Origin: a candidate division TM6 bacterium GW2011_GWF2_43_87
GTDB lineage: Bacteria > Babelota > Babeliae > Babelales > Babelaceae
Assembly: GCA_001000065.1 (NCBI GenBank)
Contig: LCGZ01000004.1
Coordinates: forward strand, 128,867-192,866
Length of the DNA: 64,000 nucleotides
Reading direction: 5' to 3'
Positions 32,169-46,816 of this stretch are shown in pieces; position 1 is the stretch's first letter; every line of letters begins with the position of its first letter. A program made the position numbers and the translations under genes. The notes below the pieces were generated by a model. The model had not been told where the DNA came from, searched no databases, and saw only the letters and a program-made list of their open reading frames with translations.

Positions 32169-33626
32169 TTGCTTATTTTGAAAAAGCACGTTCTAAAAAA
32201 AGGCGCATTTTCTATGGAGCGACTTTTACATATAGGAATTTTGGCACTGCCATTTGTTTGCATGTTAAGTGCTTTTGGTGGGGATATAGAGGCGGAAGAT
32301 CAATCGGATAAGCCATCAATAACTTTTTCTGAAAAAATTAGATGGTGCGATAATTTAGGCTGTTCATGCACAAAGCTAGAACCCACCCCCAAACCTACAT
32401 TAATTTTAAGTGGGTATGTGAATGCACAGCAGTGCTTTGATACACGTCAGGTGTATAGTTCTCGGGATGGAGAGGGCTTAGAGTATCCCTTTAAAAAAGA
32501 TATTGTAGCCTGCGGGGTTGATGCGAATAAGCAGGGTTCATTTTCGATGTATCTCTTTAACGTGCTTTTGGCTTTTTACGCGTGTGGAAAGCCTGTATGG
32601 GGAACTAAGAAAACGTATGCTATTATTTCGACTGATTTTCGAGGTATGGATGCCACTACTATCGAATTGTTGCGAATGCGCGATGCCTACGTTGTTTTTG
32701 ATTGGGAGCGAACGCAGCTTTTAACGGGTCAAAAATTACACCCTTTCTTTATAGACGATTGTTATCCCAATACGGTTGCAGGTGGTCCATTGGAGGTTTT
32801 TACCAATATTCCTATGGTTCGGTTAACCCAGAAACTGAATGGCGCGTATAAAAAGCCTAGTGATAATTTGATTTTTACCCTGGGTACACAGTGCCCGGCA
32901 ACTATGAGTAAAAGCCCAACTTCAGATGCGCCTGGAACGTCTTTTGTGAGAAGTACGCTGGTGGGACGCAACGGGGTAATGCCTATACTGCAGGTTCAGT
33001 GGCGCCATTATTTTGGTACGGATAATTTCTTTGGGATCATGATTGAGGGTCAACGGCTTCGTCCTCGTCTTAAAACAGCTGCATCTATACCCTATGCTGA
33101 AAAATGTTCTGCGTTTACTGAATGCATGTGTGGCATGTATGCAAAAATAGTTTCTGATTGTGCCATTTTAAAAACCAAGGCATCGTTTATTCAAGACGGC
33201 AGTGAGCTGGGATTTATGGGAGGATACGCGGTTGAGGACCAAGCTTCGTTCTCAAAGCGACAAAAATACACTCCTTTAAGGTCGATTTCCTTCTGGTTTG
33301 ACGTAGATTTTTGGCCAGATCAGGAGCTTTCTCCAGGGTTTATTGTTGCATTCTCAAAAAATTTGGGAGCAGGAAAATTGTTATTCCTGGATGCAAATAA
33401 ACAGCCAACCATTTACTGTTATGGACCGGGTGGATCGGCTGCAAGTATTGATACATTTTTTAAGGTTTCACCGCGATTGTGGTTTTCGAAGGGTGTGATA
33501 AATATAGGGGCAGAGATTGATTGGACTCGGGCTGGTTATGGGACTATTGATGAATATGGAGCGGTGCAGAATGCAGTTCCAGTAAATAATGTTAGATTCC
33601 AGTTATCGATATTTTATAAATTCTAG
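32169..33626 (+). CDS. Cys-rich outer-membrane beta-barrel protein (porin/MOMP-like family), paralog 1
   Basis: Signal peptide (MERLLHIGILALPFVCMLSAFGG). Many Cys. C-terminal beta-signal …VRFQLSIFYKF with alternating hydrophobics and a terminal Phe. Confidence 0.55.
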   Translation: MLILKKHVLKKGAFSMERLLHIGILALPFVCMLSAFGGDIEAEDQSDKPSITFSEKIRWCDNLGCSCTKLEPTPKPTLILSGYVNAQQCFDTRQVYSSRDGEGLEYPFKKDIVACGVDANKQGSFSMYLFNVLLAFYACGKPVWGTKKTYAIISTDFRGMDATTIELLRMRDAYVVFDWERTQLLTGQKLHPFFIDDCYPNTVAGGPLEVFTNIPMVRLTQKLNGAYKKPSDNLIFTLGTQCPATMSKSPTSDAPGTSFVRSTLVGRNGVMPILQVQWRHYFGTDNFFGIMIEGQRLRPRLKTAASIPYAEKCSAFTECMCGMYAKIVSDCAILKTKASFIQDGSELGFMGGYAVEDQASFSKRQKYTPLRSISFWFDVDFWPDQELSPGFIVAFSKNLGAGKLLFLDANKQPTIYCYGPGGSAASIDTFFKVSPRLWFSKGVINIGAEIDWTRAGYGTIDEYGAVQNAVPVNNVRFQLSIFYKF

Positions 33627-33658: not shown

Positions 33659-35127
33659 ATGACCATGGGTAGGAGATTGAGGATACTGAGCGTTTTATGG
33701 ATAGGTATTTGTACTGTTAGTGGTTTTGCGTATAATTATGCTCAGAGTAAGAATTTTGGCGAAAAGACGCAAAAAAAATTAAATACCCGAGTGATTCATA
33801 AAGCATCAGGTGAAAATTTTGACTGCTCTTGTTTAAAATTAGCGCCTACTTCTAAGCCTGTAATTACGGCTAGTGGATATGTAGATATTGAGCATTGTTT
33901 TGATACGCGTCAAATCTATGGATTTCGTGATGGTGAAAGCTTGGTATACCCTTTAAAGCGCGATTTATGTGCGTGTGGAGTTGATGCACATAAACAGGGA
34001 GCTTTTTCTATGTATCCATTTAATGTTCGGTTGGATCTGCTTATTCAACCACCCCCTGGAGTAGCCGTGGGGAATACTAAGAAGACATGGGCCTGTATAT
34101 TAACGGATTTTTATGGAATAAGTGACAGTATTACTGAACTTTTGCGTATGCGAGAAGCTTATGTTGTTTTCGAGTGGCCTGAGTCTCGGTTGTTGGTGGG
34201 ACAAGATTTACATCCATTTTTTATCGAAGATTGTTTTCCTAATACCGTGTCTTTTTCTAATGGCGCTCCTATGGAAGTTTCCACTTATATTCCTGTTGTT
34301 CGTTTTACACAAAATCTGAATAGTATATCTGGGATAAGTAAAAAAAAACCGATCAATTAATTTTTGTTTTGGCAGGTTCGCAATGTATGTTTACCAAAAG
34401 TCAAAGTCCTCTTTTTGATGCTGTTACTTCTCCAGCATCCGTTTCGTCCACTTTGGTAGCGCGCAATGGAGTAATGCCTGTTATGCATGTTCAATGGCGT
34501 CACTGTTTTGGCGGGGATAATTTTTTTGGGGTTTTGATTGAGGGACAGCGGCTTCGTCCACGTCTAAAAACCGGAACAACTCCAGCTTTTGCAGAACATG
34601 ATTCGGCTTTTACAGAATGTCTAGCGGGGGCATATGTAAGAGTTGGGTCAGATTGTGCTGTTTTGAAAGCCAAGGCGATGTTTGTTCAGGATGGGAGTGA
34701 GTTAGGATTAATAAGTGGCTATGCCGTGGAAGAGATGGCGCCAGTATCCCACAAACAAAAATATACGCCTACACGTTCTGTTGCAGCTTGGGTTGATTTA
34801 GATTTGTGGCCAGATCAGAAATGGGTGCCAGGGGGGGTGGTTGCGTTTGCAAAAAATTTGGGTGCAGGTAAGCGATTATATGTAAATCCTTCAACCGGGA
34901 GCCCGGTTGTATATGGTCTTGGACCAGTTTCTGGAGCGGCATCTACCATTGATATTGTTTTTAAAGTAGCTCCTAGATTGTGGATTAAACGAGCGGTTGT
35001 TGAGGTAGGTCTTGAGATTGATTGGACTCAGGCTAGGTATGGGACTATTGATGAATATGGGGCGGTACAGAATGCAGTTCCAGTAAATAATGTTAGATTC
35101 CAGTTATCGATATTTTATAAATTCTAA
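33659..35127 (+). pseudogene. Paralog 2 of the Cys-rich OMP family, split into two ORFs by a frameshift in an A9 homopolymer (34340..34348)
   Basis: ORFs 33659..34360 and 34369..35127 together align end-to-end with paralogs 1 and 3. Removing one A restores …ISKKKTDQLIFVLAGSQCMF…. Confidence 0.6.
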
Positions 35128-35252
35128 AAAAGGCGTTAATAACTTTTGACGAATTGCAATCGATTTCATATAGTGCTACCGGTAGCAAAATTTAGGCGTA
35201 ATATGGACGTAAGCTTATAGAAGCATGTTTTTGAAAAAGAGGGGAGCCGTAT

Positions 35253-36761
35253 ATGAAGCAACTTATAAAAATTAGCACTGGTTTCGTCGCCTCTGTCTGT
35301 ATATTGCAGATTTGCGCGGCTGATGAGGCGTCTAAAAAATTGGCAGATAAAACAGAAAAAGTTCTAGAAAGTGCTGCAGTTAAACCAGTAAAAACACCTT
35401 ATGAAAAAACCAGTTTTTGTGAGAAATTTGGCTGCTCGTGTACAAAGCTAAAGCCGCATAAAAAGCCAGTGATAACTATCAGCGGATTTGTTGATGCAGA
35501 GCACTGTTTTGATACGCGCCAGGTTTATGGATCTCGTGATGGAGAAGGGTTTTATTACCCGCGGGAGAAAGATCTTGTCGCTTGCGGGGTGGACGCTAAC
35601 AAACAGGGCTCTTTTTCAATGTTTCCGTTTAACGTTCGTTTGCTTTTCCAGATTGAGGGAGATCCGGTAGCAAATATGAAAAGAACGTATGCATTTATTG
35701 GTACGGATTTCCGTGGTACAGCTGATACTACCATTGAGCTTTTACGTATGCGTGAAGCGTACATAGTTCTCGATTGGGAGCGCACGCAGATTTTAGCGGG
35801 GCAAAAATTACATCCTTTCTGTAGTGATGACTGCAACCCTAATACGGTTTCGTATTCCAAGGGTGGCCCGATGGAAATCTATACCTATATTCCCATAGTT
35901 CGTCTAACACAGACTTTAAATGGAACCTATGAAAAACCTGCAGACCAGCTCTTTTTAATTCTTGCGGGTGGTCAATGCCCTGCAACCCAAAGTAAAAGTC
36001 CGTTGACAGATGCTCCTGGGGCGACATCTACAACGGTAGGAACTGCTAGCGCTGCAACTACTTTGGTGGGACGCAACAGTGTAATGCCCATTATGCAGGC
36101 GCAATGGCGTCATTATTTTGGCAAAGAAAATTATTTTGGAGTCACTATCGAAGGTCAGCGCCTAAGACCTCGTCTTAAAACTGTTGGGACGGGAAGTCCT
36201 GTTGTACCCTATGCCGAAAAATGTTCCGCCTTTACTGAGTGTATGTGTGCCGCTTATATGAAACTGACTTCGGAATGTGCGATTTTAAGGGCTAAATTAG
36301 CCTTTATACAAGATGGAAGTGAGCTAGGGTTTATTAGCGGCTATGCCGTTGAAGACCAAGCGAGTGTATCTAAACGACAAAAATATACTCCGTTGCGTTC
36401 TATCGCATCGTGGTTTGATGTAGATTTTTGGCCTGACCAGGAGTGGATGCCTGGGGCTGTAATTGGCTTTGCGAAAAACTTTGGTGCAGGCAAGAAGCTG
36501 TGGCTAAATGCCAATGGACAGCCTACCGTTTACACGTCAGGACCGGTTTCTGTAGCTAATCCAGGGGGTACAGGTGCAACTATCGATACGCTCTTTAAGT
36601 TTGCTCCACGATTGTGGATTAAAAAGGGCCCCGTGCATTTAGGCCTCGAATTTGACTGGACACGAGCTGCTTTTGGGAAGCTGGATGAATATGGTGCAGT
36701 CTATGGGGCTGTGCCGGTTAACAATTTCCGACTACAGTTTTCTATTTTCTATAGATTCTAG
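35253..36761 (+). CDS. Cys-rich outer-membrane beta-barrel protein, paralog 3
   Basis: Signal peptide. Conserved blocks CSCTKLKP…GFVDAEHCFDTRQVYGSRDGEG…ACGVDANKQGSFSM. C-terminus …FRLQFSIFYRF. Confidence 0.55.
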   Translation: MKQLIKISTGFVASVCILQICAADEASKKLADKTEKVLESAAVKPVKTPYEKTSFCEKFGCSCTKLKPHKKPVITISGFVDAEHCFDTRQVYGSRDGEGFYYPREKDLVACGVDANKQGSFSMFPFNVRLLFQIEGDPVANMKRTYAFIGTDFRGTADTTIELLRMREAYIVLDWERTQILAGQKLHPFCSDDCNPNTVSYSKGGPMEIYTYIPIVRLTQTLNGTYEKPADQLFLILAGGQCPATQSKSPLTDAPGATSTTVGTASAATTLVGRNSVMPIMQAQWRHYFGKENYFGVTIEGQRLRPRLKTVGTGSPVVPYAEKCSAFTECMCAAYMKLTSECAILRAKLAFIQDGSELGFISGYAVEDQASVSKRQKYTPLRSIASWFDVDFWPDQEWMPGAVIGFAKNFGAGKKLWLNANGQPTVYTSGPVSVANPGGTGATIDTLFKFAPRLWIKKGPVHLGLEFDWTRAAFGKLDEYGAVYGAVPVNNFRLQFSIFYRF

Positions 36762-36799
36762 ATAGTTATTCTGGACTTAAAAAAGAGGGAGAAGTAGCT

Positions 36800-37837
36800 A
36801 TGCAGGTGTTACCACGTGGCGAAGATGGTATAGGGTATGTTGCACCAGCTTTTCTTTTAGCTGGAATGGGAATTATGTCGATCTTATTAGGGGTGATATT
36901 TTACCAGGCCAGTTTTAACGTTAAGATTCGGGATCTGTACGCACCGGTTCAGACTTTGACTCCCAAAAAATTGGCTTATTTTGGAGGAACGCCTTCTGAT
37001 GTAACTGTAGGAATGTTTGTGCGAGACTTTCCCCAATTTGATGCGGTTCGAGGGACCTTTTCTGTAGATACTACCGTCTGGTTTTTATTTGACCCGCGGC
37101 TTGTTTCTATTGAGCGAATCGGAGATTTTACCTTTGAGCGGGCAGAAATTTTGAAACGATCCGAGCCCTACGTTCGCGTTGTGGGTAATATGGTTTTTGT
37201 TCGTTATGATATGCGCATGCGGTTCAATATGTCTTTTGACTATCAAGATTTTCCTTTTGATGGTCACCGGCTTAATTTTACCATGGTGCACTACTTTCTC
37301 TCTCCTGCCGAGGTTACCTTTAACTCTTCGCGTGCCAACTTAGTAATGAGTCCTGATATTAATATTCCGGGATGGAGAAATATTGATAGGCGCGTTGCTA
37401 CAGGGTACTCAGAAGAGCGGTTAGAGACGCAAGATGGTAAGCAGGAGTCTTTTTATCCCCGTGCCGTTTTTTCGCTTGATTTTGAGCGCATTGGGACTCG
37501 TAATATTATTTCGATATTTCTCCCTCTTCTTTTGGTTTTTTTTATAGCGTTATTTACATTTTCATTTGATCCTGTTGGAAAAATGGGTGTGCAGGCTGTT
37601 ACACTTTCAGCGACATCTATTACGGCACTGATTGCCTATCGATTTGTTATTGAAAATATGTCTCCTCCCGTAGGTTATTTTATGGCGTCTGACTATATAT
37701 TTTTAATATTTCTTGTGTCGTGCTGTGCCATATTTTTTATAAATATTTTTGGAGCCTATGTATCAGGAATCAGTAAGGCAATTATAGCGGTTGTACTTGA
37801 ATCGATCATAGTAACGACGTTCTTTTTATTGGTTTAG
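36800..37837 (+). CDS. Pentameric ligand-gated ion channel (Cys-loop receptor / neurotransmitter-gated ion-channel family) homolog
   Basis: AGAGGGAGAAG RBS. About 190-aa extracellular-type domain with W..D.RL and the Cys-loop-equivalent FPFD motif. A pre-M1 Arg, then M1 with a conserved Pro (IFLPLLLVFF), M2 (VQAVTLSATSITALIAYRFV), M3, a short loop and M4. Confidence 0.7.
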   Translation: MQVLPRGEDGIGYVAPAFLLAGMGIMSILLGVIFYQASFNVKIRDLYAPVQTLTPKKLAYFGGTPSDVTVGMFVRDFPQFDAVRGTFSVDTTVWFLFDPRLVSIERIGDFTFERAEILKRSEPYVRVVGNMVFVRYDMRMRFNMSFDYQDFPFDGHRLNFTMVHYFLSPAEVTFNSSRANLVMSPDINIPGWRNIDRRVATGYSEERLETQDGKQESFYPRAVFSLDFERIGTRNIISIFLPLLLVFFIALFTFSFDPVGKMGVQAVTLSATSITALIAYRFVIENMSPPVGYFMASDYIFLIFLVSCCAIFFINIFGAYVSGISKAIIAVVLESIIVTTFFLLV

Positions 37838-37847
37838 GACGTAACTT

Positions 37848-40034
37848 ATGAGGAAGATAGTACTAGGTGTCATTCTGTTAAATACCTCTTGTGCTAATGC
37901 TTTATTTGAAACGCTTTCTGAATGTAAGAATTTTGCAAATACATACAGGGAAGATGTAGAGTGTGATAATTGTAGTTGGAGGGATCCCTCGTACTCGACC
38001 TTTTATGGTTCTGTGAGAGTCGGTTTTTTCAAACGTCTTTTAAAAAAGCTTGGAATAAAAGCGGGTGTGTGGGATTTATTGGAACTTAAGCAGCCCATTG
38101 GTAGAATAGTTCAACGTTTTAATGTGACGAAACAACAACGTTCTTGGACCCCTGAGATAACGGTTGAAGAGGGCGTAAATCTTTTTGTATGGGGTGATTT
38201 ATATGGAGCGTTTCATTCTTTTCTTCGTGATCTTGATGAACTTGCAGCACGGAAAGTGCTAAGTGAGCAACTTAAGATAAATAGTAAAACAGATTATCTA
38301 GTGGTATTAGGGAATGCGATTAATTATTCTCCTTATTCTTACCCCTTGCTTACTCTGTTACTTTCTCTGATTGAAAAAAACCCTGAGCATTTTATTTATA
38401 TACGAGGTCCTCAGGAAACTGCTGCTCACTGGAAAGATTTTTATGTAATGCGTAAGCCTCTTGTAGACCTTGGAAAGCAGCAGGGTTTTGATGTGAAAGG
38501 GAAGTTGCCGCTTGAGGACGAGTTGAATACATTTTTTGGTACCTTGCCAGATGGTGTTCTTTTTAGGCATAAAAAAGCTGAGGATCTATGTTGTCTTTCC
38601 CATTCAATAATATCGCGAAAGTTATTTTTTGACCCCAAGGTTCAGGCCGCATTGATGGGGAAATCCAGGATTGATACATATTGGTCTAATAATGGACTTG
38701 AGTTTTCAGGATTCGAGGGCAATGCTGCAACATGGTCTCTCTTTTCAGCTCCTGTGGGAATTTATCAGAAGGCTGTGAATTTCTATAGTGATAGTTTTGT
38801 AGCGGTACATGTCGGAAAGTCATTCGCGCAGAGCACTATGTCTCTATTTTCTCGCGATATTCGTTTGGTGGAAAATTTTAAGGAGCAGGTTTTTTCATTG
38901 TCTGTGGGGATGAAAATTGATCCGAGAAAAAAAACTCAAGAAATCCCGATTTTCTCGATTGGATCTACTATGCCGCTGACGGGGGGGTTGATGCCTTTAG
39001 GCGTTTCTGTAAAGCAAGGAGTTGAAGCGGCTTTTAGGAAGGTTAATGATTTGGGCGGTGTTGATGGTTATTTTTTGAAGCTTGTAATATTAGATGATCG
39101 CTATTCTCCTGGAATAGCTAGGGCAAATGTTGATCTTTTATTAAAAAAATTTGGAATTCAGACATTGATTTGTCCTGTTGGAACTCCCACTCTAAATGCT
39201 TATTTGGATCTAGTGCGCGCTGGAAAGGTGTGGGTGTTTTATCCGATTACGGGTAGTGAATTCTTTAGATCTCCAGACCTTGGAAATATTGTTAACCAAC
39301 CCTATGGTAATGATACAAAGGCTTTGATGAAATTTATGGCTTCAACCCATAAATTTGAGCAATATGCTATAGTTTATCCTCGAGATCTTTACGGAAACTT
39401 GTTGATGGAGCAGGCTCAAGATGTTCTTAAGAGTTATGGCATAAATGATGTTTTATTATTTCCTGTCTCTCCCAAACAGAGAGATTTTAAAGAAATAGTG
39501 AAAAAATTGAAAGAAGCGGATCCAGAAGTATTAGCTATCTTTTTGGCTTCAGGATCTATGGCTTCATCTTTCTTAAGTCAACTTGGTAATGCTTTTCTTG
39601 GGGGAAAGAATTTGGCTGCTCTTGCCTATTTGGATGATGCAAACTTTGGGCCGTTTTTACATAAAACGGGGTTAAAGTTTAATTTTTCGTATTTACTTCC
39701 AAATCCTTATGGAAGTGACTTTGCATTTTTAAGAGACTACCGGGAGCATTTGAAACGGTATGATGGCCCTATTGACGTTAATTCATTAGAAGGATTTTTG
39801 GGTGCAACTTGTTTTGTTGAAGCAATGAAGAAAGTTGGAAAACCATTTGCCCCTTCTGCTATTAATGATTATCTAACGCATTTAAATCCATTTCCTATCA
39901 AAGGTTTTTTGACCCTTGAGAAGGATCCTCTAACGGGAAAGCGTTATCTTCCTGTTAGCATAAAAAACGATGAGAATGAGTGGATAATGTTGAATAATCT
40001 ACAAGAGGACCATGATTTATCCAAGAGGAAATAG
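37848..40034 (+). CDS. Secreted two-domain protein 1: N-terminal PPP-family Ser/Thr phosphatase-like (calcineurin/PP1-like, degenerate motifs) fused to a C-terminal type-I periplasmic binding protein (LivJ / ANF-receptor-like)
   Basis: Signal peptide. WGDLYGAFHSF (GDxHG-like), VVLGNAINYSPYSY (GDxxDRG-like, D->N), and YIRGPQE (GNHE-like). C-terminal half IGSTMPLTGGLMPLGVSVKQGVEAAFRKVNDLGGVDGYFLKLVILDD… has a LivJ-like pattern. Confidence 0.65.
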   Translation: MRKIVLGVILLNTSCANALFETLSECKNFANTYREDVECDNCSWRDPSYSTFYGSVRVGFFKRLLKKLGIKAGVWDLLELKQPIGRIVQRFNVTKQQRSWTPEITVEEGVNLFVWGDLYGAFHSFLRDLDELAARKVLSEQLKINSKTDYLVVLGNAINYSPYSYPLLTLLLSLIEKNPEHFIYIRGPQETAAHWKDFYVMRKPLVDLGKQQGFDVKGKLPLEDELNTFFGTLPDGVLFRHKKAEDLCCLSHSIISRKLFFDPKVQAALMGKSRIDTYWSNNGLEFSGFEGNAATWSLFSAPVGIYQKAVNFYSDSFVAVHVGKSFAQSTMSLFSRDIRLVENFKEQVFSLSVGMKIDPRKKTQEIPIFSIGSTMPLTGGLMPLGVSVKQGVEAAFRKVNDLGGVDGYFLKLVILDDRYSPGIARANVDLLLKKFGIQTLICPVGTPTLNAYLDLVRAGKVWVFYPITGSEFFRSPDLGNIVNQPYGNDTKALMKFMASTHKFEQYAIVYPRDLYGNLLMEQAQDVLKSYGINDVLLFPVSPKQRDFKEIVKKLKEADPEVLAIFLASGSMASSFLSQLGNAFLGGKNLAALAYLDDANFGPFLHKTGLKFNFSYLLPNPYGSDFAFLRDYREHLKRYDGPIDVNSLEGFLGATCFVEAMKKVGKPFAPSAINDYLTHLNPFPIKGFLTLEKDPLTGKRYLPVSIKNDENEWIMLNNLQEDHDLSKRK

Positions 40035-40046
40035 TGAGGAGGTAGT

Positions 40047-42266
40047 ATGGCAAATTTATCCCTAAAGCATTTGGTAATTTTATTTTATATAGGTGTTCTC
40101 CTGTTTGATAGTCTTGGGGTGCATGCATCTTTTAACACACTCTTTGAGTGTAAAAAATTTGCAGCACGGCATGAAGAAAGTCCCAAGAGTGATGATAGTA
40201 ATTGGAATGATCCTATTTTTGCTTCCTTTTATTCAAAAATGTTGCCTAGTTTTTTAAAGCGTATCGCGTTAAAATTTGGGTTTGGATCGAATGAATGGGA
40301 TGTCTCAAGGTTGGAAATTCCTTTAAAAAGAGTGGTTGAGCTGCGCCAAAAGATAGTAAAACCTCATCCATGGACCGTAGAGATTGAGGTAAAGGAGGGG
40401 ACGCGACTTTTTATATGGGGAGATCTGTATGGGGCAATTCACTCGTTTGTTCGTGGGCTTGAAGAGCTTGAGAGACGAGAGATAATCAACGAGAACTTGA
40501 AAATCATAAAGAATGATGACTATATAGTGCTTCTAGGGAATGCGATTAATCTTTCACCGTACTCATATCAGATGCTAGAGCTTATACTTTCTTTGATGGA
40601 AAAGAATCCGGAGCGCTTTATTTATTCGCGTGGGCTGCAAGAAAAAGGGCTTAAGTGGAAAGATGGCTATGTAATGCGTCAACCACTTATTGAATTGGCG
40701 CGTAAGGCAGGGAAAATTCATACAGGCGATGTGTCTCTTGAGAATGCCCTTAGCACTTTCTTTAATACGTTACCCGATCTGATTTTATTCAAGCATATAG
40801 GGCAGGGTAAAGAACAGCTGATATGTTCACATACAGACGTCCCTTATTCTATGTTGTCTAATCCAAAAGTTATGGCCTGGCTCGCAGGAGAGCGACGAGG
40901 AGAGCTATCATGGACAACAACAGGATTATCCTTTCTCGGGTTTGACGGTAATGCAGCGAAATGGTCTCTATTGTCGGCACCTATCTCCATTTATCAGGAA
41001 TTGGCAGAATTTTATTCAGATAGCTTTATGGAAATTAGTGTTGAAGATTCATTTACTCAGAGTATCTTGAATCTTTTTTCGCGAGATATGCGGACTAAAG
41101 AGGCCTTTAAAAAAGAGAGCCATTATCTGTCTGTGGGGTTGTCTATTCCTGTTGGCGAAGCACCTAAAAAGATATCTATCTTTACCGTGGGGTCTTCTTT
41201 GTGTTTAACAGGAGCAATGCGCCCACTTGGACGTGCGGTAAGGCGAGGGATTCTTGCGGCCTTTAGGAATGTAAATGAGCAGGGTGGAGTAAGTGGTTCT
41301 TACGTTAAATTGGTGGGATTGGATGATCAATATAGTCCGCGACTTGCGCGAAAAAATATTGACCTGTTTCTTGATCAGTTTGGTATTAATGTCATCCTAT
41401 GCCCTACGGGAACTCCCACGTTAGATTCCTACCTTGATTTGGTACGCAAGGGAGATGTTTTTGTATTTTATCCGGTTAGTGGAAGTGAAACTTTTAGAAC
41501 TCCTGATCTTTTGAATCTTATTAATCAGCATGTTCCTTATGCAAATGAGGTGCAGGCTTTGATGAACTTTGTTGTTTCAGAATATAAGCTAAAGCAGTAC
41601 GCAATCGTCTATCCTGATGATAGCTTTGGAAATCCTCTTATGCGCACGGCCAAAGAAATACTTGAAAAATTGGGCGTGAAAAGTGTTGTTCCTATTCCTT
41701 TTTCTCGTGATCAGACAAGTTTTGAGGAACAGGTTAAAAAACTGAAAGAAGTTACCCCAGAAGGAATCGCCTTCTTTTTTGCTGCAGGATCTTTGGCTAG
41801 CGCATTTTTAAGCCAAACTGGAACCGCATTTTTGGTGGGGAAACATCTGGCTGCGCTTTCTTATTTGGATGACATTGTTTTTAGGCAGTTTATTACAAAG
41901 GCGGGCTTGAGGTTTACTTTTTCCTATGGGGTTCCAGATCCAAATTTAAGTGAACTTGGGTTTGTTAAAGAGTATCGGTCGCAGATGGGAAAATACCATT
42001 ATCCTATCGATAGTAATTCTCTAGAGGGATTTTTAGGGGCGTCTGCCTTTATTGAGGCAATGAAGAAAGTAGGGTCTCCTTTTAAGGCAAATAAATTAAT
42101 GGGTTATCTAGAGTCGCTGCAAGTTTCTCCTGTAAAGAATTTTATAGATGTTCCCTTTGATCGAAGAGTTAGAGGCGTTGTGTATCCCACCTGGATAAAG
42201 TCAGAATCGGGGAACTGGATTGCTGCGGATGAGAAAAAAGGGCTAGATGGAGCAGCTAAAAAATGA
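40047..42266 (+). CDS. Secreted two-domain protein 2: PPP-phosphatase-like + PBP type-I fusion (paralog)
   Basis: IWGDLYGAIHSF, VLLGNAINLSPYSY, and YSRGLQE. C-terminal VGSSLCLTGAMRPLGRAVRRGILAAFRNVNEQGGVSG…LDDQYSP. Confidence 0.65.
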   Translation: MANLSLKHLVILFYIGVLLFDSLGVHASFNTLFECKKFAARHEESPKSDDSNWNDPIFASFYSKMLPSFLKRIALKFGFGSNEWDVSRLEIPLKRVVELRQKIVKPHPWTVEIEVKEGTRLFIWGDLYGAIHSFVRGLEELERREIINENLKIIKNDDYIVLLGNAINLSPYSYQMLELILSLMEKNPERFIYSRGLQEKGLKWKDGYVMRQPLIELARKAGKIHTGDVSLENALSTFFNTLPDLILFKHIGQGKEQLICSHTDVPYSMLSNPKVMAWLAGERRGELSWTTTGLSFLGFDGNAAKWSLLSAPISIYQELAEFYSDSFMEISVEDSFTQSILNLFSRDMRTKEAFKKESHYLSVGLSIPVGEAPKKISIFTVGSSLCLTGAMRPLGRAVRRGILAAFRNVNEQGGVSGSYVKLVGLDDQYSPRLARKNIDLFLDQFGINVILCPTGTPTLDSYLDLVRKGDVFVFYPVSGSETFRTPDLLNLINQHVPYANEVQALMNFVVSEYKLKQYAIVYPDDSFGNPLMRTAKEILEKLGVKSVVPIPFSRDQTSFEEQVKKLKEVTPEGIAFFFAAGSLASAFLSQTGTAFLVGKHLAALSYLDDIVFRQFITKAGLRFTFSYGVPDPNLSELGFVKEYRSQMGKYHYPIDSNSLEGFLGASAFIEAMKKVGSPFKANKLMGYLESLQVSPVKNFIDVPFDRRVRGVVYPTWIKSESGNWIAADEKKGLDGAAKK

Positions 42267-42283: not shown

Positions 42284-44485
42284 ATGAAGGGATATTTTTT
42301 AGTTTCACTAATGATATATGTCGGTATGGCCAATGGGGCTGTAGGGCTAGATACACTTGAAAAATGTCGCACCTTTGCAGCTTCGTATCCAGAGTTTCCC
42401 AAGGCTGATAATGACGATCTTATTGATCCTAAATATTCTTCGTTTTATGCAAGCTCTTATCCGTCATTTTTGATGCGCATATCAGCTTCTATTCGTATGG
42501 TTGATAATATATGGGATTTCTCGATTTTAGAAAAATTATTAGATAAAATAATTGCAACGGCTGGCAAAAAACCTGAATCAGGTCTTTTTATTAAGAACGT
42601 TATTGTAGAGCCTGGAGCTCGCGGTATAGTTTTTGGGGACTTGCATGGACAGATTCACTCATTTATACGAGATTTAGGCGAGCTTGAGCGTCTGGGTTTT
42701 ATGGACGGGAATCTTAAGTTTAAAGATCAGCGTACCTATGGCATTCTTTTGGGAGATGTTATTAATAGGACATCGTATTCGTACCAAATTCTGCAGGTTG
42801 TATGCAATCTTATATTAAATAATCCAGGACACTTTTTTTATATTCGTGGCAATCAAGAGCGTGAACAGCGGTGGGAGAGTGCTTTTGCTATGAATGAACC
42901 ACTGCATTGGTGGTCGAATATTCAGGGATATAGACGAGGTGCCTGTGCTTCTCTTAAGGATAAAATAAATCAGTTCTTTGACACGTTACCCGATATTGTG
43001 GCTTTGAAACTGACAACAAAGCCGAATGAGGTTGTGTATTGCGCTGCTGACACGGTGCCGGTTTCCATACTTTCACATCCGGGAGTTGAAGCTCTATTAG
43101 TAGGGGAGCAGCGCAAGCAAATGTTTCATATTCCATCAGGTCTTGATTTTATGAAGTTTAATGTGGGTGTTGCGCATTGGTCTCTTTTTTCATGTCCTTC
43201 AACCGTTTATCAATCTATGGTTGAGTTTTTTCGAGATGCGTTTGTTATTTTACGTGTTGGATCGTCATGGAGGCTATCTTCATTAGTTCTTAACTACCGT
43301 GATATTCGCAGGAAAGAGGGTTTTAAAAAAGAATTATTTGATTTAACTATGGGTATTGCATGCCCGTCAGAAAGTGATCTTGAAAAAAGTCTTAATAAGC
43401 CGGTTTATTCGATAGGTTCTAGTGTAGCGTTTTTTAGTGGCTATGGTGCAGCTGGAACATCATTAGGGCATGGCATAGAAGGAGCTATTTTAGCTGCAAA
43501 TGATAGCGGTGGTGTAAAGGGATATCTTATTAGGCCTATTGTGTTGGATGATGAAACGCTTGCGCGGCTTGCTCGGGCGAATGCAGAAAAATTAAAGAAA
43601 GAATATGGGGTTGATGTTATTGTTAGCGCTCAGGGAACTGAGCAGGTATCCTCGTATCTTGATCAAGTAAAGGCTGGAAGCATTATCTCGCTATTTCCCC
43701 GTACAGGCGCCCCACAGCTTAGGAATATGTCGATGAAAAATATGGTGCATTTTAGAACTTCCTATGATGATGAAACAACGGCGTTAATAGACTATGTGAT
43801 AAAAGAGTATAAGGTACGTTCCTTTACGTTTGTGTACCAGAATGATGGGTATGGTATTCCAGTTTTGGAAGCTGCACACAAAGCGCTTATAAAATGGGGT
43901 ATAACTACCTGGACTGATATTCCTTACTCTCGAGAGCAGGTTTCGTTTAGCGATACGGTTAAAAGAGTGAAAAAGGCTGGAGCTGAAGGATTAGGAATGT
44001 TCTTTTCTGCCCATGCTCCTATTCGAGCATTTTTGGAGCTTTTGGGAGCAGAGTTTTTCTTGGGCCGGGTAGGATTTGGTTTTTCGTTTATGATTAGCGA
44101 GGCAACTCGACAATTTTGTGAGTCACGTGGGATGCATTTTATATTGTCTTATTCAACGCCTGATCCCAACAGCGAGGATACTCCGTTTATACGAGAGTAT
44201 ACAAAGGCAATGAAACGGTATGGTATTATTCGTGATGTTAATTCTTTGGATGGATACATGGCTGGTGCGCTTTTGGTTGAGGCACTCTCCCATATTGAGC
44301 CTCCTTTTACCAAAGAAAAAATTATGAATTTTTTTGAAAATTTGAAGGACTATTCATTTGCAGGTTTCAAACTAAATTTTGATCCTGAAACCCGTCAGCT
44401 AGGATTGCCTGTTTGGGTGGTTGCTCCCGACAAAAAGGCACTTACTTTTGAGTATAAACGCTCTGTGTTAAAGGATCGGTGGTAG
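42284..44485 (+). CDS. Secreted two-domain protein 3: PPP-phosphatase-like + PBP type-I fusion (paralog with the best-preserved phosphatase motifs)
   Basis: FGDLHGQIHSF (GDxHGQ), LLGDVINRTSYSY (GDxxxR), FFYIRGNQE (GNHE with H->Q). C-terminal IGSSVAFFSGYGAAGTSLGHGIEGAILAANDSGGVKGYLIRPIVLDDE. Confidence 0.65.
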   Translation: MKGYFLVSLMIYVGMANGAVGLDTLEKCRTFAASYPEFPKADNDDLIDPKYSSFYASSYPSFLMRISASIRMVDNIWDFSILEKLLDKIIATAGKKPESGLFIKNVIVEPGARGIVFGDLHGQIHSFIRDLGELERLGFMDGNLKFKDQRTYGILLGDVINRTSYSYQILQVVCNLILNNPGHFFYIRGNQEREQRWESAFAMNEPLHWWSNIQGYRRGACASLKDKINQFFDTLPDIVALKLTTKPNEVVYCAADTVPVSILSHPGVEALLVGEQRKQMFHIPSGLDFMKFNVGVAHWSLFSCPSTVYQSMVEFFRDAFVILRVGSSWRLSSLVLNYRDIRRKEGFKKELFDLTMGIACPSESDLEKSLNKPVYSIGSSVAFFSGYGAAGTSLGHGIEGAILAANDSGGVKGYLIRPIVLDDETLARLARANAEKLKKEYGVDVIVSAQGTEQVSSYLDQVKAGSIISLFPRTGAPQLRNMSMKNMVHFRTSYDDETTALIDYVIKEYKVRSFTFVYQNDGYGIPVLEAAHKALIKWGITTWTDIPYSREQVSFSDTVKRVKKAGAEGLGMFFSAHAPIRAFLELLGAEFFLGRVGFGFSFMISEATRQFCESRGMHFILSYSTPDPNSEDTPFIREYTKAMKRYGIIRDVNSLDGYMAGALLVEALSHIEPPFTKEKIMNFFENLKDYSFAGFKLNFDPETRQLGLPVWVVAPDKKALTFEYKRSVLKDRW

Positions 44486-44496
44486 TAAAAATGTGA

Positions 44497-45501
44497 TCAG
44501 TTTTGTGACTGTTTTTTCACCACGCGAGATTTTGCTTTTGGGGCGTTTTTTAGAGCTTCTTTTAAGTGTGTGATGCACCAGGATAAACTCTCTGTTTTTA
44601 ATGAGGTGGGCTGAATTTTTGCCTGGGAATATGCATCGTTTAAGGAGAATAAAATGTAGGTGAACATCTGTTTTTTTGTGGGGATAGAAGAATTTTTACT
44701 TTTGGTAACAATGAAGCTTATTATAACTTTTAATGATTCAAAGCGTTCATTTTGAATTGCCCACTCTAGAATGGATGATATGTTTGGTTTTTTGAGATTG
44801 TTGGTGGAGAAAGGGTCGCAGAATAGATGAGAAATGGCGGTAGGAAGACCCCTTACTGTGTTATTTAGGAAGAGCGACAGAGTTTGAGGAGTGTCGTCTT
44901 TTACGTGGCTGTAAATGAGACACTTTTTTTGTTCTCTTGGAATAGCATTCCACTCTTCAAATAAGTTTTTTTTCGTTTTTGTATTCGGTTCCGTGGTGTT
45001 GCTGTCCTGTATAGGTCTTTTTTTACAGAATTTTTTTGAGGAGCCTCTTTTCCGTTTAATAGGGGGATTTTTTGTGGACGCGATTTTTTGTGGGCCCTGT
45101 TCAACTATTTTAGTTGGCTGTGGCTCGGTCTCCTCGTCTGGGTCGAAAAACTGGAAAGTTGGCATGTCAAAAAACTTGTCAGGGTCTAAGGTCATCGGTT
45201 TTAAAATGGTTGTGGGGGATTGTGGTGGTGTCACGATTCCCTGATCAACGAGCACGTTGGTTGAGTTGTTTTCTAGGTGAGCTAGTAGATCTTGTATTGG
45301 GGTATTGTTTTCATCTAGCCAAAAAGGCGTTGGGTCGGGAGTAGTTGAGGGTGGAAAGCTTGACGGCTGTTGATCATCAAGATCCAGAAGGTTGAAAGTT
45401 GGTTCTGTGTTATCGTTTTCCCATTCATTCATTGCCCACAGGCTGCTTGTGATAGAAAAGAGTAGCAGGACAATTAGCTGTGGCAGATGTTTTCTGATCA
45501 T
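44497..45501 (-). CDS. Hypothetical secreted Pro/Thr/Asn-rich protein with a basic KRKR…KKFCKKR cluster
   Basis: Signal peptide MIRKHLPQLIVLLLFSITSSLWA. Low-complexity PSSFPPSTTPDPTP. A basic patch PPIKRKRGSSKKFCKKRP. Confidence 0.5.
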   Translation of the reverse strand: MIRKHLPQLIVLLLFSITSSLWAMNEWENDNTEPTFNLLDLDDQQPSSFPPSTTPDPTPFWLDENNTPIQDLLAHLENNSTNVLVDQGIVTPPQSPTTILKPMTLDPDKFFDMPTFQFFDPDEETEPQPTKIVEQGPQKIASTKNPPIKRKRGSSKKFCKKRPIQDSNTTEPNTKTKKNLFEEWNAIPREQKKCLIYSHVKDDTPQTLSLFLNNTVRGLPTAISHLFCDPFSTNNLKKPNISSILEWAIQNERFESLKVIISFIVTKSKNSSIPTKKQMFTYILFSLNDAYSQAKIQPTSLKTESLSWCITHLKEALKNAPKAKSRVVKKQSQN

Positions 45502-45922: not shown

Positions 45923-46816
45923 TTATTTTTCGGTCATGTGTTTAAATTTAATGGGCGACTCAAACCGAATCCTTAGATCGCAAAAGCGTTTGGAGCGGTT
46001 TTTAAGGACTGTGGTTTGTTTGGCAAATTTGTTAAGCAGGTTGAGCTGTGTGATAAGGTGCCCTTTATTCATGTGATAGACTGCTTTGAGCTCTTTTTCA
46101 AGCGGGGTTCTTTTAAAAACAATATTTAAGGTACTGTTGTTTTTAAGATCTTGCATGTTTTTTGGCCAAAGATACGTAGGGTTTCTGGCTCCGAAAATTG
46201 TTTGCATATATCGATTGGCTGCATCGATTAATACGGGATCTCCATTGTAATCGCTAGGCAGTTGCGGAAGTATTATACCTTTTTGAAGTTCTTCGGCAAA
46301 CTTAGGCGCAAGGAAGTTTTTTACGAATATGACACGGTCATCCTTAGTTATTGTCTTTCCCCCTTTTTTGGTGGACATCAAGAGATTGATGAGCTGAGTA
46401 CACTGTTCTGGTTTCCAAAGATTGCCCTCTAGAAGATAGTTCAAGGAATATGCATAGCCTCCAATAAAGGGATCAGCCCCATATTTGAGGAGAAAATTTA
46501 CAAATTCAAGGTTCTTATCGAGAGTAGCGGTATATAACGAAGTGGTCGAGCCACCTATCCTGTTAACGTCTGCGCCATTTTTGACTAGTAACTTTATGAT
46601 TTCAAAGTTGCATGCATAAAAAACAGCACGATTTAGGGGTGGGTAGCCATTGTTGTTCTTGGCATTGACATCTATTTTGTGTCCCGGTTGCAGAAGAGTT
46701 TTAATCCCTTCAAGATCATTTTTGTTTATGAGCTGGTGTAAATTCGCTCCCTTTAACAGGGTAGTGCTTGGTGCAAGCAGAGCGAGTGAGAGTGCGATGA
46801 GTTTTGCAATTTTCAT
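45923..46816 (-). CDS. Ankyrin-repeat protein with signal peptide and a C-terminal domain of unknown function
   Basis: Signal peptide MKIAKLIALSLALLAPSTTLL. ANK motifs NGYPPLNRAVFYACNFEIIKLLVKNGADVN…. Confidence 0.7.
   Translation of the reverse strand: MKIAKLIALSLALLAPSTTLLKGANLHQLINKNDLEGIKTLLQPGHKIDVNAKNNNGYPPLNRAVFYACNFEIIKLLVKNGADVNRIGGSTTSLYTATLDKNLEFVNFLLKYGADPFIGGYAYSLNYLLEGNLWKPEQCTQLINLLMSTKKGGKTITKDDRVIFVKNFLAPKFAEELQKGIILPQLPSDYNGDPVLIDAANRYMQTIFGARNPTYLWPKNMQDLKNNSTLNIVFKRTPLEKELKAVYHMNKGHLITQLNLLNKFAKQTTVLKNRSKRFCDLRIRFESPIKFKHMTEK

Follow-up and report, generated by a model that had tools for sequence, protein, structure and literature searches.

A very divergent Pro-loop receptor homolog and its binding-protein partner genes in a Dependentiae bacterium

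Much of the structural understanding of neurotransmitter receptors comes from the bacterial pLGICs GLIC, ELIC, sTeLIC and DeCLIC, whose native physiology and ligands are largely unknown. GLIC (Gloeobacter) and sTeLIC are minimal bacterial Cys-less pLGICs, and DeCLIC (Desulfofustis) is a calcium-regulated multidomain pLGIC with two N-terminal periplasmic jelly-roll lobes on the same chain. Periplasmic binding proteins serving one membrane component are known from MBP-Tar, from LuxP-LuxQ, and from LivJ and LivK, which share LivHMGF. Bacterial pLGICs with PBP-I fusions, or in PBP-II or Cache operons, were described by Tasneem, Iyer, Jakobsson & Aravind (2005). Across the superfamily, the tip of the beta6-beta7 loop displays the motif [F/Y]-P-x-D, of which the proline is the sole absolutely conserved residue (Jaiteh et al. 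2016, Table 1).

The window (the whole stretch of DNA analysed, 64,000 nucleotides) belongs to a Dependentiae (TM6) bacterium, an intracellular parasite of protists. Dependentiae lack amino-acid biosynthesis, draw their ATP from the host and need importers (PMC4776705, PMC6561590). One gene of the window encodes a protein (Table 1) that is a genuine, very divergent pLGIC (Pro-loop receptor) homolog; a preliminary description had given its coordinates exactly. A chlamydia-like origin was rejected, as identical proteins were found in TM6 bacterium GW2011_GWF2_43_87 and in a Dependentiae MAG. The window contained no further copy of the channel, and a 334-aa ORF (44497-45501, minus strand) was not a paralog.

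Table 1. Position, strand and basis of the features around the channel gene, in window coordinates.
Feature	Position	Strand	Basis or remark
Top promoter-like site of the region	35146-35174		Sigma-70 scan; just upstream of porin gene
Secreted outer-membrane porin, 502 aa, 16-strand barrel	35253..36761	+	AF2, Foldseek, signal peptide
Shine-Dalgarno AGAGGGAG	36784..36791	+	Read from sequence; 8 nt before ATG at 36800
pLGIC-like (Pro-loop receptor) subunit gene, 345 aa	36800..37837	+	Profile, fold and signature-residue evidence
TM0, extra N-terminal transmembrane helix before ECD (residues 16-37)	36845..36910	+	AF2 helix, pLDDT >90
Periplasmic beta-sandwich (residues 55-230)	36962..37489	+	AF2 secondary structure; GLIC alignment; family conservation
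Pro-loop FPFD (151-154)	37250-37261	+	Within beta-sandwich domain
Pre-M1 Arg R230	37487-37489	+	End of beta-sandwich domain
M1 (residues 234-255), kink proline P242	37499..37564	+	GLIC alignment
M2 pore helix (residues 263-287)	37586..37660	+	Ungapped HMM alignments to GLIC and sTeLIC
9' Thr T275	37622-37624	+	M2 register from GLIC/sTeLIC alignments
M2-M3 loop SPPVGYFM (residues 288-295), invariant P289	37661..37684	+	Conservation, GLIC alignment
M3 (296-316), 6-residue M3-M4 loop, M4 (323-344)	37685..37831	+	AF2; sTeLIC alignment through M4
Partner A, 728 aa; signal peptide, degenerate PPP-type phosphoesterase, type-I (Leu/Ile/Val-binding-protein-like) binding domain	37848..40034	+	Pfam, motifs
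Partner B, 739 aa, tandem paralog, 49% identity to A	40047..42266	+	Peripla_BP_6 E=4e-39
Partner C, 733 aa, tandem paralog, 32-34% identity to A/B	42284..44485	+	Peripla_BP_6 E=1.6e-32, Metallophos E=3.7e-7

Curated models did not recognize the channel protein. Pfam PF02931 and PF02932 were silent, a search with the Neur_chan_LBD and Neur_chan_memb HMMs giving zero matches at E<=10, and the NCBIfam model LGIC_1 (NF033918) stayed below its cut-off (E=2.4e-9, 37 bits, cut-off 500). A Pfam scan of 108 family members returned Neur_chan_LBD in 17 of them, only at sub-threshold level (best E 0.002), and Neur_chan_memb in none (0/108). The preliminary description had named the absence of a significant Pfam match as grounds for refutation, a rule under which the homolog would be wrongly rejected; profile and fold evidence overrule it, and the failure of the curated models reflects limited model sensitivity, with homology not contradicted. 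The family profile aligned with 170 pLGIC chains of the PDB, including GLIC (2.3e-12) and sTeLIC (3.2e-12, with an alignment running through M4). The AF2 model (pLDDT 94.4, pTM 0.86) showed the superfamily fold, in which a ten-strand beta-sandwich at the N-terminus precedes four TM helices, and Foldseek matched it to 1106 chains at E<=1e-3, the best matches being all pLGIC. Identity to any solved pLGIC was about 15%.

All seven signature residues of Jaiteh et al. (2016) were present (7/7), each in 82-100% of the family, with conservation counts taken on the 108-member alignment. The segment F151-P152-F153-D154 aligned with GLIC F119-P120-F121-D122 and was conserved at F151 (107/108), P152 (108/108) and D154 (89/108). 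As previously claimed, this FPFD within QDFPFDGHRLNF had no flanking Cys; the loop NMSFDYQDFPFDGHRLNFTM was Cys-free, without the disulphide Cys pair of the strict metazoan-type Cys-loop, and the channel is of the Cys-less (Pro-loop) type. The beta9 tryptophan W192 (108/108) aligned with the 'TGW' of GLIC, whose W160 is an aromatic packing in the ECD core. R230, found in 89/108 members, was located 12 residues before the M1 proline as in GLIC, and the HMMER alignment placed this pre-M1 Arg in register with R192. The kink proline of M1 (P242, within IFLPLLLV) and the proline of the M2-M3 loop (P289) were both found in 108/108 members and aligned with GLIC P204 and P247, respectively. Also correctly anticipated were this M1 with its conserved Pro, the pre-M1 Arg, a polar M2 containing TLSATSITAL, and a very short M3-M4 loop (6 residues) leading into M4. 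The announced W-x-x-D-P-R-L block was present as TVWFLFDPRL (residues 92-101), but its spacing is W-x-x-x-DPRL, and this portion of the ECD aligned with GLIC only non-significantly (profile search, domain 1). The claim of a Cys-less pLGIC homolog, with a beta-sandwich ECD and M1-M4, was thus borne out by the profile, AF2, Foldseek and the signature residues.

An ectodomain beta-sandwich with four C-terminal TM helices had been expected and was found, but the extra N-terminal helix TM0 was not foreseen; also missed were the Thr at the 9' position, which departs from the canonical residue, and the partner genes with their conserved placement. A hydrophobic N-terminal segment was present in 107/108 family members, and some variants carried about seven further TM helices ahead of TM0, so that TM0 is probably more than a signal peptide that is cleaved off. 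Such cleavage is also unlikely given this conservation, the 22-residue length of the helix, and the lack of a basic n-region or AxA site in the window protein. The Shine-Dalgarno motif 8 nt before the ATG supports the long N-terminus including TM0. An inverted topology with a cytoplasmic ECD, suggested by the charges around TM0 in the window protein, was rejected on family-wide K+R counts, which favour the canonical topology, and is countered as well by the signal peptides on free partners and by partner fusion after M4. The AF2 model of the channel protein had no intracellular domain, which leaves ion flux as the sole plausible output.

The channel family encompassed 396 clusters at 50% identity in Dependentiae, where it is common, often multi-copy and unannotated. 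The earlier statement that pLGICs are rare in obligate intracellular lineages does not apply to these host-dependent bacteria, in which the family is found in a conserved operon. Some members came from MAGs labelled Pseudomonadota, Myxococcales or Parachlamydiales, through either mislabelling or gene transfer. A literature search returned nothing relevant on pLGICs in Dependentiae, Babela or TM6, nor on pLGICs with an additional TM helix. This large clade, with hundreds of sequence clusters missed by domain databases, implies that Pfam-based surveys undercount pLGICs, and it adds a five-helix subunit to the known repertoire.

Three tandem paralogs followed the channel gene, partner A beginning 10 bp past it. 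Partner A carried the signal peptide MRKIVLGVILLNTSCANA, matched Peripla_BP_6 (E=9e-35) and, weakly, Metallophos, and had LIVBP homologs as its closest solved structures (E=3.8e-13). A signal peptide was likewise present in partner B, and its PPP motifs were degenerate. The motifs read GDLYG / GNAINYS / GPQE in A and GDLHG / GDVINRT / GNQE in C. As GDxHG, GDxxDRG and GNHE were degenerate in all three window paralogs, an active periplasmic phosphatase was rejected, and none of the fused examples inspected retained all three PPP motifs.

In 38 of 46 GTDB-representative loci, a same-strand partner homolog began 15-320 bp past the channel gene, and an adjacent partner was also present in 5/5 loci retrieved independently; none was detected adjacent to the channel gene in 8/46. 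The ratio was one channel gene to 1-3 partner paralogs. A paralog with 9'-Pro sat after its partner, not before. Among cluster representatives, six proteins were channel-Metallophos-PBP fusions (about 970-1110 aa) and two were channel-PBP fusions (about 750 aa), and fused single ORFs were also found in two loci (L023 and L052). The post-M4 linker of the fusions was Lys/Arg-rich, an uncommon composition for a segment in the periplasm. Fusion occurred after M4, and the fused forms lacked the partner signal peptide that free partners possess, which fits M4 ending in the periplasm. Gene-calling artefacts were discarded as an explanation, since the fusions come from 8 separate 50%-identity cluster representatives in addition to L023 and L052, in two architectures, all without partner signal peptide. 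Such adjacency and fusion establish that channel and partner are functionally linked, though not which of them controls the other.

Upstream, 38 bp ahead of the channel gene, the porin gave no match in the Pfam scan. Its AF2 model was all-beta (pTM 0.72), and Foldseek placed DcaP first (6eus, E=3.4e-15, TM 0.80), followed by Omp32, PorB and OmpF. Porin homologs directly upstream of the channel gene were found in a minority of loci (L005, L007, L009-L013, L033 and L041). The sigma-70 promoter and terminator scan yielded counts no higher than in shuffles, and only the position of the top site was suggestive.

Typical but not defining features of the pLGIC superfamily are a Leu (75%) or Phe (13%) at 9' and a cationic 0' residue (79%), both of which the channel lacks. 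Its M2 displayed 2'T, 6'T, 9'T, 13'A, 16'F, 17'V and 19'E, with a small or polar lining (Thr/Ser/Gly/Ala at 2', 6', 9' and 13') and a pore-facing periodicity exactly as in GLIC. Family members harbored Thr (86), Ser (14) or Leu (3) at 9' (Thr/Ser in 100/108), and none of 57 reference-genome genes encoded Leu, Ile or Phe at this position. The 0' residue was Ile, Ala, Gly or Val, with Lys/Arg in 0/108, and the charged selectivity ring was absent, so that both canonical selectivity motifs are missing; 16' Phe was found in 107/108. In the alpha7 nAChR, L9'T raised agonist sensitivity 660-fold, abolished desensitisation and let the receptor open spontaneously (PMC4548482). The natural 9' Thr pore is the wild-type counterpart of this classic gain-of-function mutation, and bears on the location of the gate.

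By homology, the protein would form a pentamer and act as a gated, ion-selective conductor. With a probability of roughly 60%, the protein is an inner-membrane pLGIC subunit that would have handed ligand sensing over to the binding proteins. Five subunits would assemble into a channel, and a small solute from the host, most probably an amino acid, may reach the periplasm through the porin and be caught there by one or another of several interchangeable binding proteins. Once loaded with ligand, this protein would dock on the periplasmic domain and open the channel, with the 16' Phe ring as putative gate. In this way host metabolites could, by opening the channel, alter the parasite's membrane potential or its ion content.

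It seems rather unlikely that the channel is instead gated autonomously by ligand or pH, its own beta-sandwich binding the agonist as in GLIC and ELIC, with binding proteins that merely concentrate or present the ligand or serve a related pathway step without contact. To our knowledge, every pLGIC characterised so far is gated through its own ECD, and here the complete interface coupling ECD to TMD (Pro-loop, pre-M1 Arg and M2-M3 loop) was the most conserved part of the protein, near-invariant aromatic residues being found in the ECD as well (W94, F95, F97, Y203 and H156). The classical agonist loops, however, were the least conserved (loop C 0.32, loop F 0.39), and the partner genes have multiplied into paralogs next to a channel gene that remains single. 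Loci without an adjacent partner (8/46) speak for autonomous gating, and concentration or presentation of the ligand by binding proteins is the reading favoured by Tasneem et al. (2005), whereas repeated independent covalent fusions argue for physical association over a loose pathway link.

It is doubtful that porin, PBP and pLGIC-type pore together form a previously unrecognised binding-protein-dependent channel, in which the binding protein itself would be the agonist or, in a stronger version, a wide polar pore would conduct amino acids or metabolites and provide ATP-free uptake to an energy parasite. An uptake channel proper, with porin, PBP and pore achieving ATP-independent, envelope-spanning import of amino acids or small host metabolites, appears improbable. 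The operon does combine a porin, a channel and three LIVBP-like proteins in a lineage unable to make amino acids and relying on host ATP and importers, and the small polar lining without a charged ring could pass solutes larger than inorganic ions, but the invariant 16' Phe and the 17' Val ring would form a narrow hydrophobic girdle, and a passive channel is unable to accumulate solutes. ABC, TRAP and TTT transporters all rely on binding proteins and offer a precedent for such use; we know of no pLGIC acting as an amino-acid transporter, and the porin was linked in only a minority of loci.

It is very improbable that the protein is a non-conducting pLGIC fold that serves to anchor the periplasmic pseudo-phosphatase/binding protein in the membrane or to scaffold it. 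The missing canonical gate and selectivity residues, a TM0 that is superfluous for a channel, and partners sometimes just tethered to M4 would suit such a role, but the strongest conservation was displayed by the M2-M3 loop (mean top-residue fraction 0.86, the highest of all family segments) and M2 (0.60), with the GLIC-like pore-facing periodicity retained. A mere anchor would not keep the gating triad of Pro-loop, pre-M1 Arg and M2-M3 Pro, and the lack of a cytoplasmic domain leaves it no alternative output. Chance resemblance of an unrelated membrane protein with FPFD-like and LP motifs, for which the absent Pfam match and the low identity to solved pLGICs could be invoked, is refuted by the PDB profile alignments, the family signature residues and the fold comparison, and has next to no likelihood.

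Conserved synteny and repeated natural fusions provide the clearest genomic case so far for a 20-year-old hypothesis of cooperation between periplasmic binding proteins and bacterial pLGICs. The Dependentiae channel is a natural test system for gating of pLGICs by a partner protein, and the natural 1:1 fusions are ready-made cryo-EM constructs. The family also hints at a way in which protist parasites with an obligate intracellular life might detect or import metabolites of their hosts.

Compared with GLIC and sTeLIC (about 15-18% identity), the channel adds an N-terminal TM helix and a dedicated binding-protein partner, has an M1-M2 loop 3 residues longer, and is not recognised by Pfam. Its family displays Thr/Ser at 9' where GLIC and sTeLIC have Ile/Leu, and it lacks both the -2'/-1' acidic ring and the 0' Arg/Lys. 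While the accessory lobes of DeCLIC are N-terminal and on the same chain, the pseudo-phosphatase/PBP module is separate or C-terminally fused here. With the proteins of Tasneem et al. (2005), the channel has in common a pLGIC core combined with a periplasmic PBP-superfamily module, by fusion or operon, leading to the same inference of functional cooperation. In those proteins PBP-I is N-terminal, before the ECD, whereas here it is a downstream gene (a separate one in the window) or a C-terminal fusion after M4, and the partner carries an extra degenerate PPP-phosphatase domain. The lineage also differs (Dependentiae versus proteobacteria), and the partner link is far more systematic here (38/46 loci). 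By analogy, the ratio of one channel to 1-3 partners would resemble that of membrane components sharing several binding proteins and fit the pattern of MBP-Tar, LuxP-LuxQ and LivJ/LivK, the membrane component being an ion channel here rather than a chemoreceptor, a kinase or an ABC permease.

The 345-aa protein encoded by the channel ORF is almost certainly a pLGIC homolog. The preliminary description had placed the ORF exactly and proposed a Cys-loop receptor homolog from sequence alone, naming a Pfam search as the test. The Pfam scan of the channel protein gave zero matches at E<=10, neither Neur_chan_LBD nor Neur_chan_memb being found; among its 108 aligned homologs (alignment A1, hereafter the family), Neur_chan_memb was absent from all members and Neur_chan_LBD occurred only below threshold, in 17 (best E=0.002). 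The evidence from outside Pfam was nevertheless decisive, so the inference was right although its own test failed. NCBIfam LGIC_1 matched the channel at E=2.4e-9 (but its 37 bits fall short of the cut-off of 500), and phmmer with the single channel sequence retrieved pLGICs exclusively from the PDB (best 3.5e-4). A profile built from the 108 homologs matched 170 pLGIC chains in the PDB, including GLIC (2.3e-12) and sTeLIC (3.2e-12), with alignments spanning the Pro-loop to M3 and extended through M4 for sTeLIC. As expected beforehand, the AlphaFold2 monomer on alignment A1 (pLDDT 94.4, pTM 0.86) displayed a beta-sandwich and four C-terminal TM helices with a very short M3-M4 loop, in the order short helix, beta-sandwich (66-230), M1 (234-255), M2 (263-287), M3 (296-316), a 6-residue loop and M4 (323-344). 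Foldseek with this model returned 1106 PDB chains at E<=1e-3, the top matches all being pLGIC subunits, and chance resemblance to pLGICs is a negligible explanation.

All seven residues defining the pLGIC superfamily (Jaiteh et al. 2016) were present in the channel, in register with GLIC in the family alignment: the Pro-loop aromatic F151 (107/108 family members), proline P152 (108/108) and Asp D154 (89/108), the beta9 Trp W192 (108/108), the pre-M1 Arg R230 (89/108), the M1 kink proline P242 (108/108) and the M2-M3 loop proline P289 (108/108). The motifs quoted earlier were all recovered, among them FPFD at residues 151-154 within the Cys-free loop QDFPFDGHRLNF, the pre-M1 Arg, the M1 string IFLPLLLV with its conserved Pro (P242) and the M2 string TLSATSITAL. 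Lacking the Cys pair, the channel is therefore a Cys-less Pro-loop receptor, as had been stated. The string TVWFLFDPRL was found at residues 92-101, but its spacing is W-x-x-x-DPRL and not the announced W-x-x-D-P-R-L; this block was the weakest of the motifs, since its region (domain 1 of the profile search) aligned to GLIC only non-significantly.

The channel subunit has the pLGIC fold and an intact gating interface. It lacks a cytoplasmic domain, its pore is atypical and polar, and at its N-terminus an additional transmembrane helix (TM0, spanning residues 16-37 at pLDDT >90 in the AlphaFold2 model) precedes the beta-sandwich. TM0 was kept in 107 of 108 family members, and a literature search of limited coverage found no such helix reported for pLGICs. 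Some variants of about 550 aa (cluster representatives P0207, P0242, P0223, P0238 and P0254) carried about seven additional TM helices ahead of TM0, in an added N-terminal membrane domain (about 215 aa) that contains an internal repeat around 'FGISHL' / 'FATSHI' and has no Pfam match. The M2 register was gap-free against both GLIC and sTeLIC and anchored on the invariant M2-M3 Pro; in this sequence alignment the pore residues are 2'T, 6'T, 9'T, 13'A, 16'F, 17'V and 19'E. Positions 16' (Phe, 107/108) and 17' (Val, 108/108) were essentially invariant in the family. The gate of ELIC is a 16' Phe ring, and by analogy the gate of the channel may be the same ring. At 9', 86 of the 108 members have Thr, 14 have Ser and just 3 have Leu, and none of the 57 family genes in reference genomes encoded Leu, Ile or Phe there; Lys or Arg never occurred at 0' in the 108 members, and no acidic ring was found at -1' / -2'. 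The superfamily norm is 9' Leu (75%) or Phe (13%) and 0' Arg/Lys (79%) (Jaiteh et al. 2016). Engineered L9'T in the alpha7 nAChR shifted agonist sensitivity 660-fold, abolished desensitisation and produced spontaneous openings (PMC4548482); the channel may likewise be easily opened.

Features of the channel locus in the window, and 9'-Pro paralogs in other family loci (L numbers, reference genomes)
Feature	Coordinates	Strand	Remarks
Second porin paralog	32169-33626	+	61% identical to the 502-aa porin, 1.6 kb upstream
Two domain-less ORFs	33659-35127	+	233 and 252 aa, between the two porin genes
Porin			502 aa, secreted; 38 bp upstream of the channel gene
Shine-Dalgarno	36784-36791		AGAGGGAG, strong, 8 nt 5' of the channel ATG
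Channel	36800-37837	+	single-copy in the window
Partner A	37848-40034	+	begins 10 bp after the channel gene; GDLYG/GNAINYS/GPQE
Partner B	40047-42266	+	tandem paralog of A; GDLYG/GNAINLS/GLQE
Partner C	42284-44485	+	tandem paralog of A/B; GDLHG/GDVINRT/GNQE
334-aa ORF	44497-45501	-	convergent with the operon
Ankyrin-repeat protein	45923-46816	-	Ank_2/Ank_4
9'-Pro paralog, L028	8193-9032
9'-Pro paralog, L029	6228-6989
9'-Pro paralog, L034	4954-5943
9'-Pro paralog, L037	5070-5927

In the window, the channel is linked to both a porin and three tandem partner genes. Partners A, B and C (32-49% mutual identity) each bear a classical signal peptide, a PPP-type phosphoesterase domain with catalytic motifs degenerate relative to the canonical GDxHG/GDxxDRG/GNHE, and a type-I periplasmic binding domain (Peripla_BP_6, E=1e-32 to 4e-39) whose closest solved structures are Leu/Ile/Val-binding proteins (E=3.8e-13). 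The 502-aa porin had no Pfam match and was modelled by AlphaFold2 as a 16-strand porin (pTM 0.72), with DcaP as best Foldseek match (E=3.4e-15, TM 0.80), followed by Omp32, PorB and OmpF. In a scan overall not above chance, the top-scoring promoter-like site lay directly 5' of the porin gene and no convincing internal terminator was found within the operon. The 334-aa ORF, without Pfam match, combines a signal peptide with a long low-complexity region rich in Pro, Thr and Asn, and its cluster of basic residues, KRKRGSSKKFCKKRP, resembles a eukaryotic nuclear-localisation signal; judged on these features, its product could be a secreted host-targeted effector.

The genetic or physical link of the channel to a secreted pseudo-phosphatase/LIVBP-like protein is conserved. 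A Peripla_BP_6 protein of 730-780 aa lay 3' of the channel gene in 5/5 independently retrieved loci (35-100% identity), and in 38 of 46 GTDB-representative loci a homolog of the window's partners, present in one to three copies, began 15-320 bp 3' of the channel gene on the same strand; some of the 8 loci missing an adjacent partner are short contigs or hold the most divergent members. Fusions occurred as channel-Metallophos-Peripla_BP_6 (six cluster representatives, about 970-1110 aa), as channel-Peripla_BP_6 (two, about 750 aa) and as single fused ORFs in L023 (twice) and L052. The fused proteins have lost the partner signal peptide and carry a polar linker after M4, as expected for the canonical topology, in which the end of M4 is periplasmic; family-wide K+R counts (4.4 in predicted cytoplasmic segments vs 1.9 in periplasmic ones) agreed. 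Porin homologs lay directly upstream of the channel in nine further loci, not counting L001 and L002 (copies of the locus in the window); these nine include tandem porin-channel-partner modules. In L010, L011 and L012 the whole module was tandemly duplicated (porin-channel-partner-channel-partner-partner), so the unit was duplicated as a block. A distinct paralog type, 'TDVPSIAAAGVPALFAYRFVIES', with Pro at 9' (also in L048 and L053), immediately followed the partner gene in four loci as channel-partner-channel2 operons, a position hinting at possible heteropentamers.

The family is common and lineage-typical in Dependentiae, and no sporadic rarity: when 1.84 billion cluster representatives were searched exhaustively with the profile, 396 clusters reached E<=1e-30, and a single motif pattern recovered the family in 47 GTDB species-representative genomes. 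Identical proteins (HBL98266.1 / KKT23400.1, annotated "hypothetical protein") came from a Candidatus Dependentiae MAG and TM6 bacterium GW2011_GWF2_43_87. As far as named sources show, the family is confined to Dependentiae, all named homologs being from Dependentiae, TM6 or Babeliales; a literature search, likewise of limited coverage, found nothing connecting Dependentiae with pLGICs. Some loci lay in MAGs labelled Pseudomonadota (L023, L024, L039, L040, L042, L043, L047, L050, L051), Myxococcales (L032) or Parachlamydiales (L052), labels that could reflect mislabelling, binning contamination or horizontal transfer. The ankyrin-repeat gene, typical of Dependentiae host-interaction gene content, supports the Dependentiae assignment of the window.

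The best overall explanation (probability about 0.6) is a pLGIC homolog that works with its partner and is gated by it. The channel probably functions together with the partner; that the partner is its gating agonist is a more tentative proposition, at somewhat below even odds. The subunit would form a homopentameric inner-membrane channel, on whose periplasmic domain the binding proteins would dock as interchangeable ligand-sensing subunits and open it. In the family alignment the ECD-TMD coupling interface was most constrained (M2-M3 loop 0.86, pre-M1/M1 0.65, beta10 0.62, Pro-loop 0.60) and the classical agonist loops least (0.32 for loop C and 0.39 for loop F). An autonomous ligand- or pH-gated channel, for which the binding proteins merely concentrate ligand, as Tasneem et al. 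proposed for bacterial pLGICs, is unlikely. A binding-protein-dependent conduit for solute uptake is less likely still, and a non-conducting scaffold, set beside the constrained coupling interface, very improbable. Dependentiae are obligate intracellular protist parasites with genomes of 1-1.5 Mb and no amino-acid biosynthesis (PMC4776705, PMC6561590). For the partner-gated channel, the ligand would probably be a host amino acid or similar small solute let in by the porin, and the output in the parasite an ion flux or an altered membrane potential.

By sequence and fold, the family stands nearest to GLIC and sTeLIC; conceptually, it most resembles the pLGICs fused to PBP-I or encoded in PBP-II/Cache operons, predicted in 2005 (Tasneem et al.), and DeCLIC, which has accessory N-terminal domains. 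In PBP-I-fused pLGICs and DeCLIC the accessory part is N-terminal, whereas here it is encoded downstream or fused C-terminally. Unlike the compared systems, the Dependentiae family has a pseudo-phosphatase domain on its accessory protein, five TM helices in the channel and Thr/Ser at pore position 9', and it is missed by Pfam.
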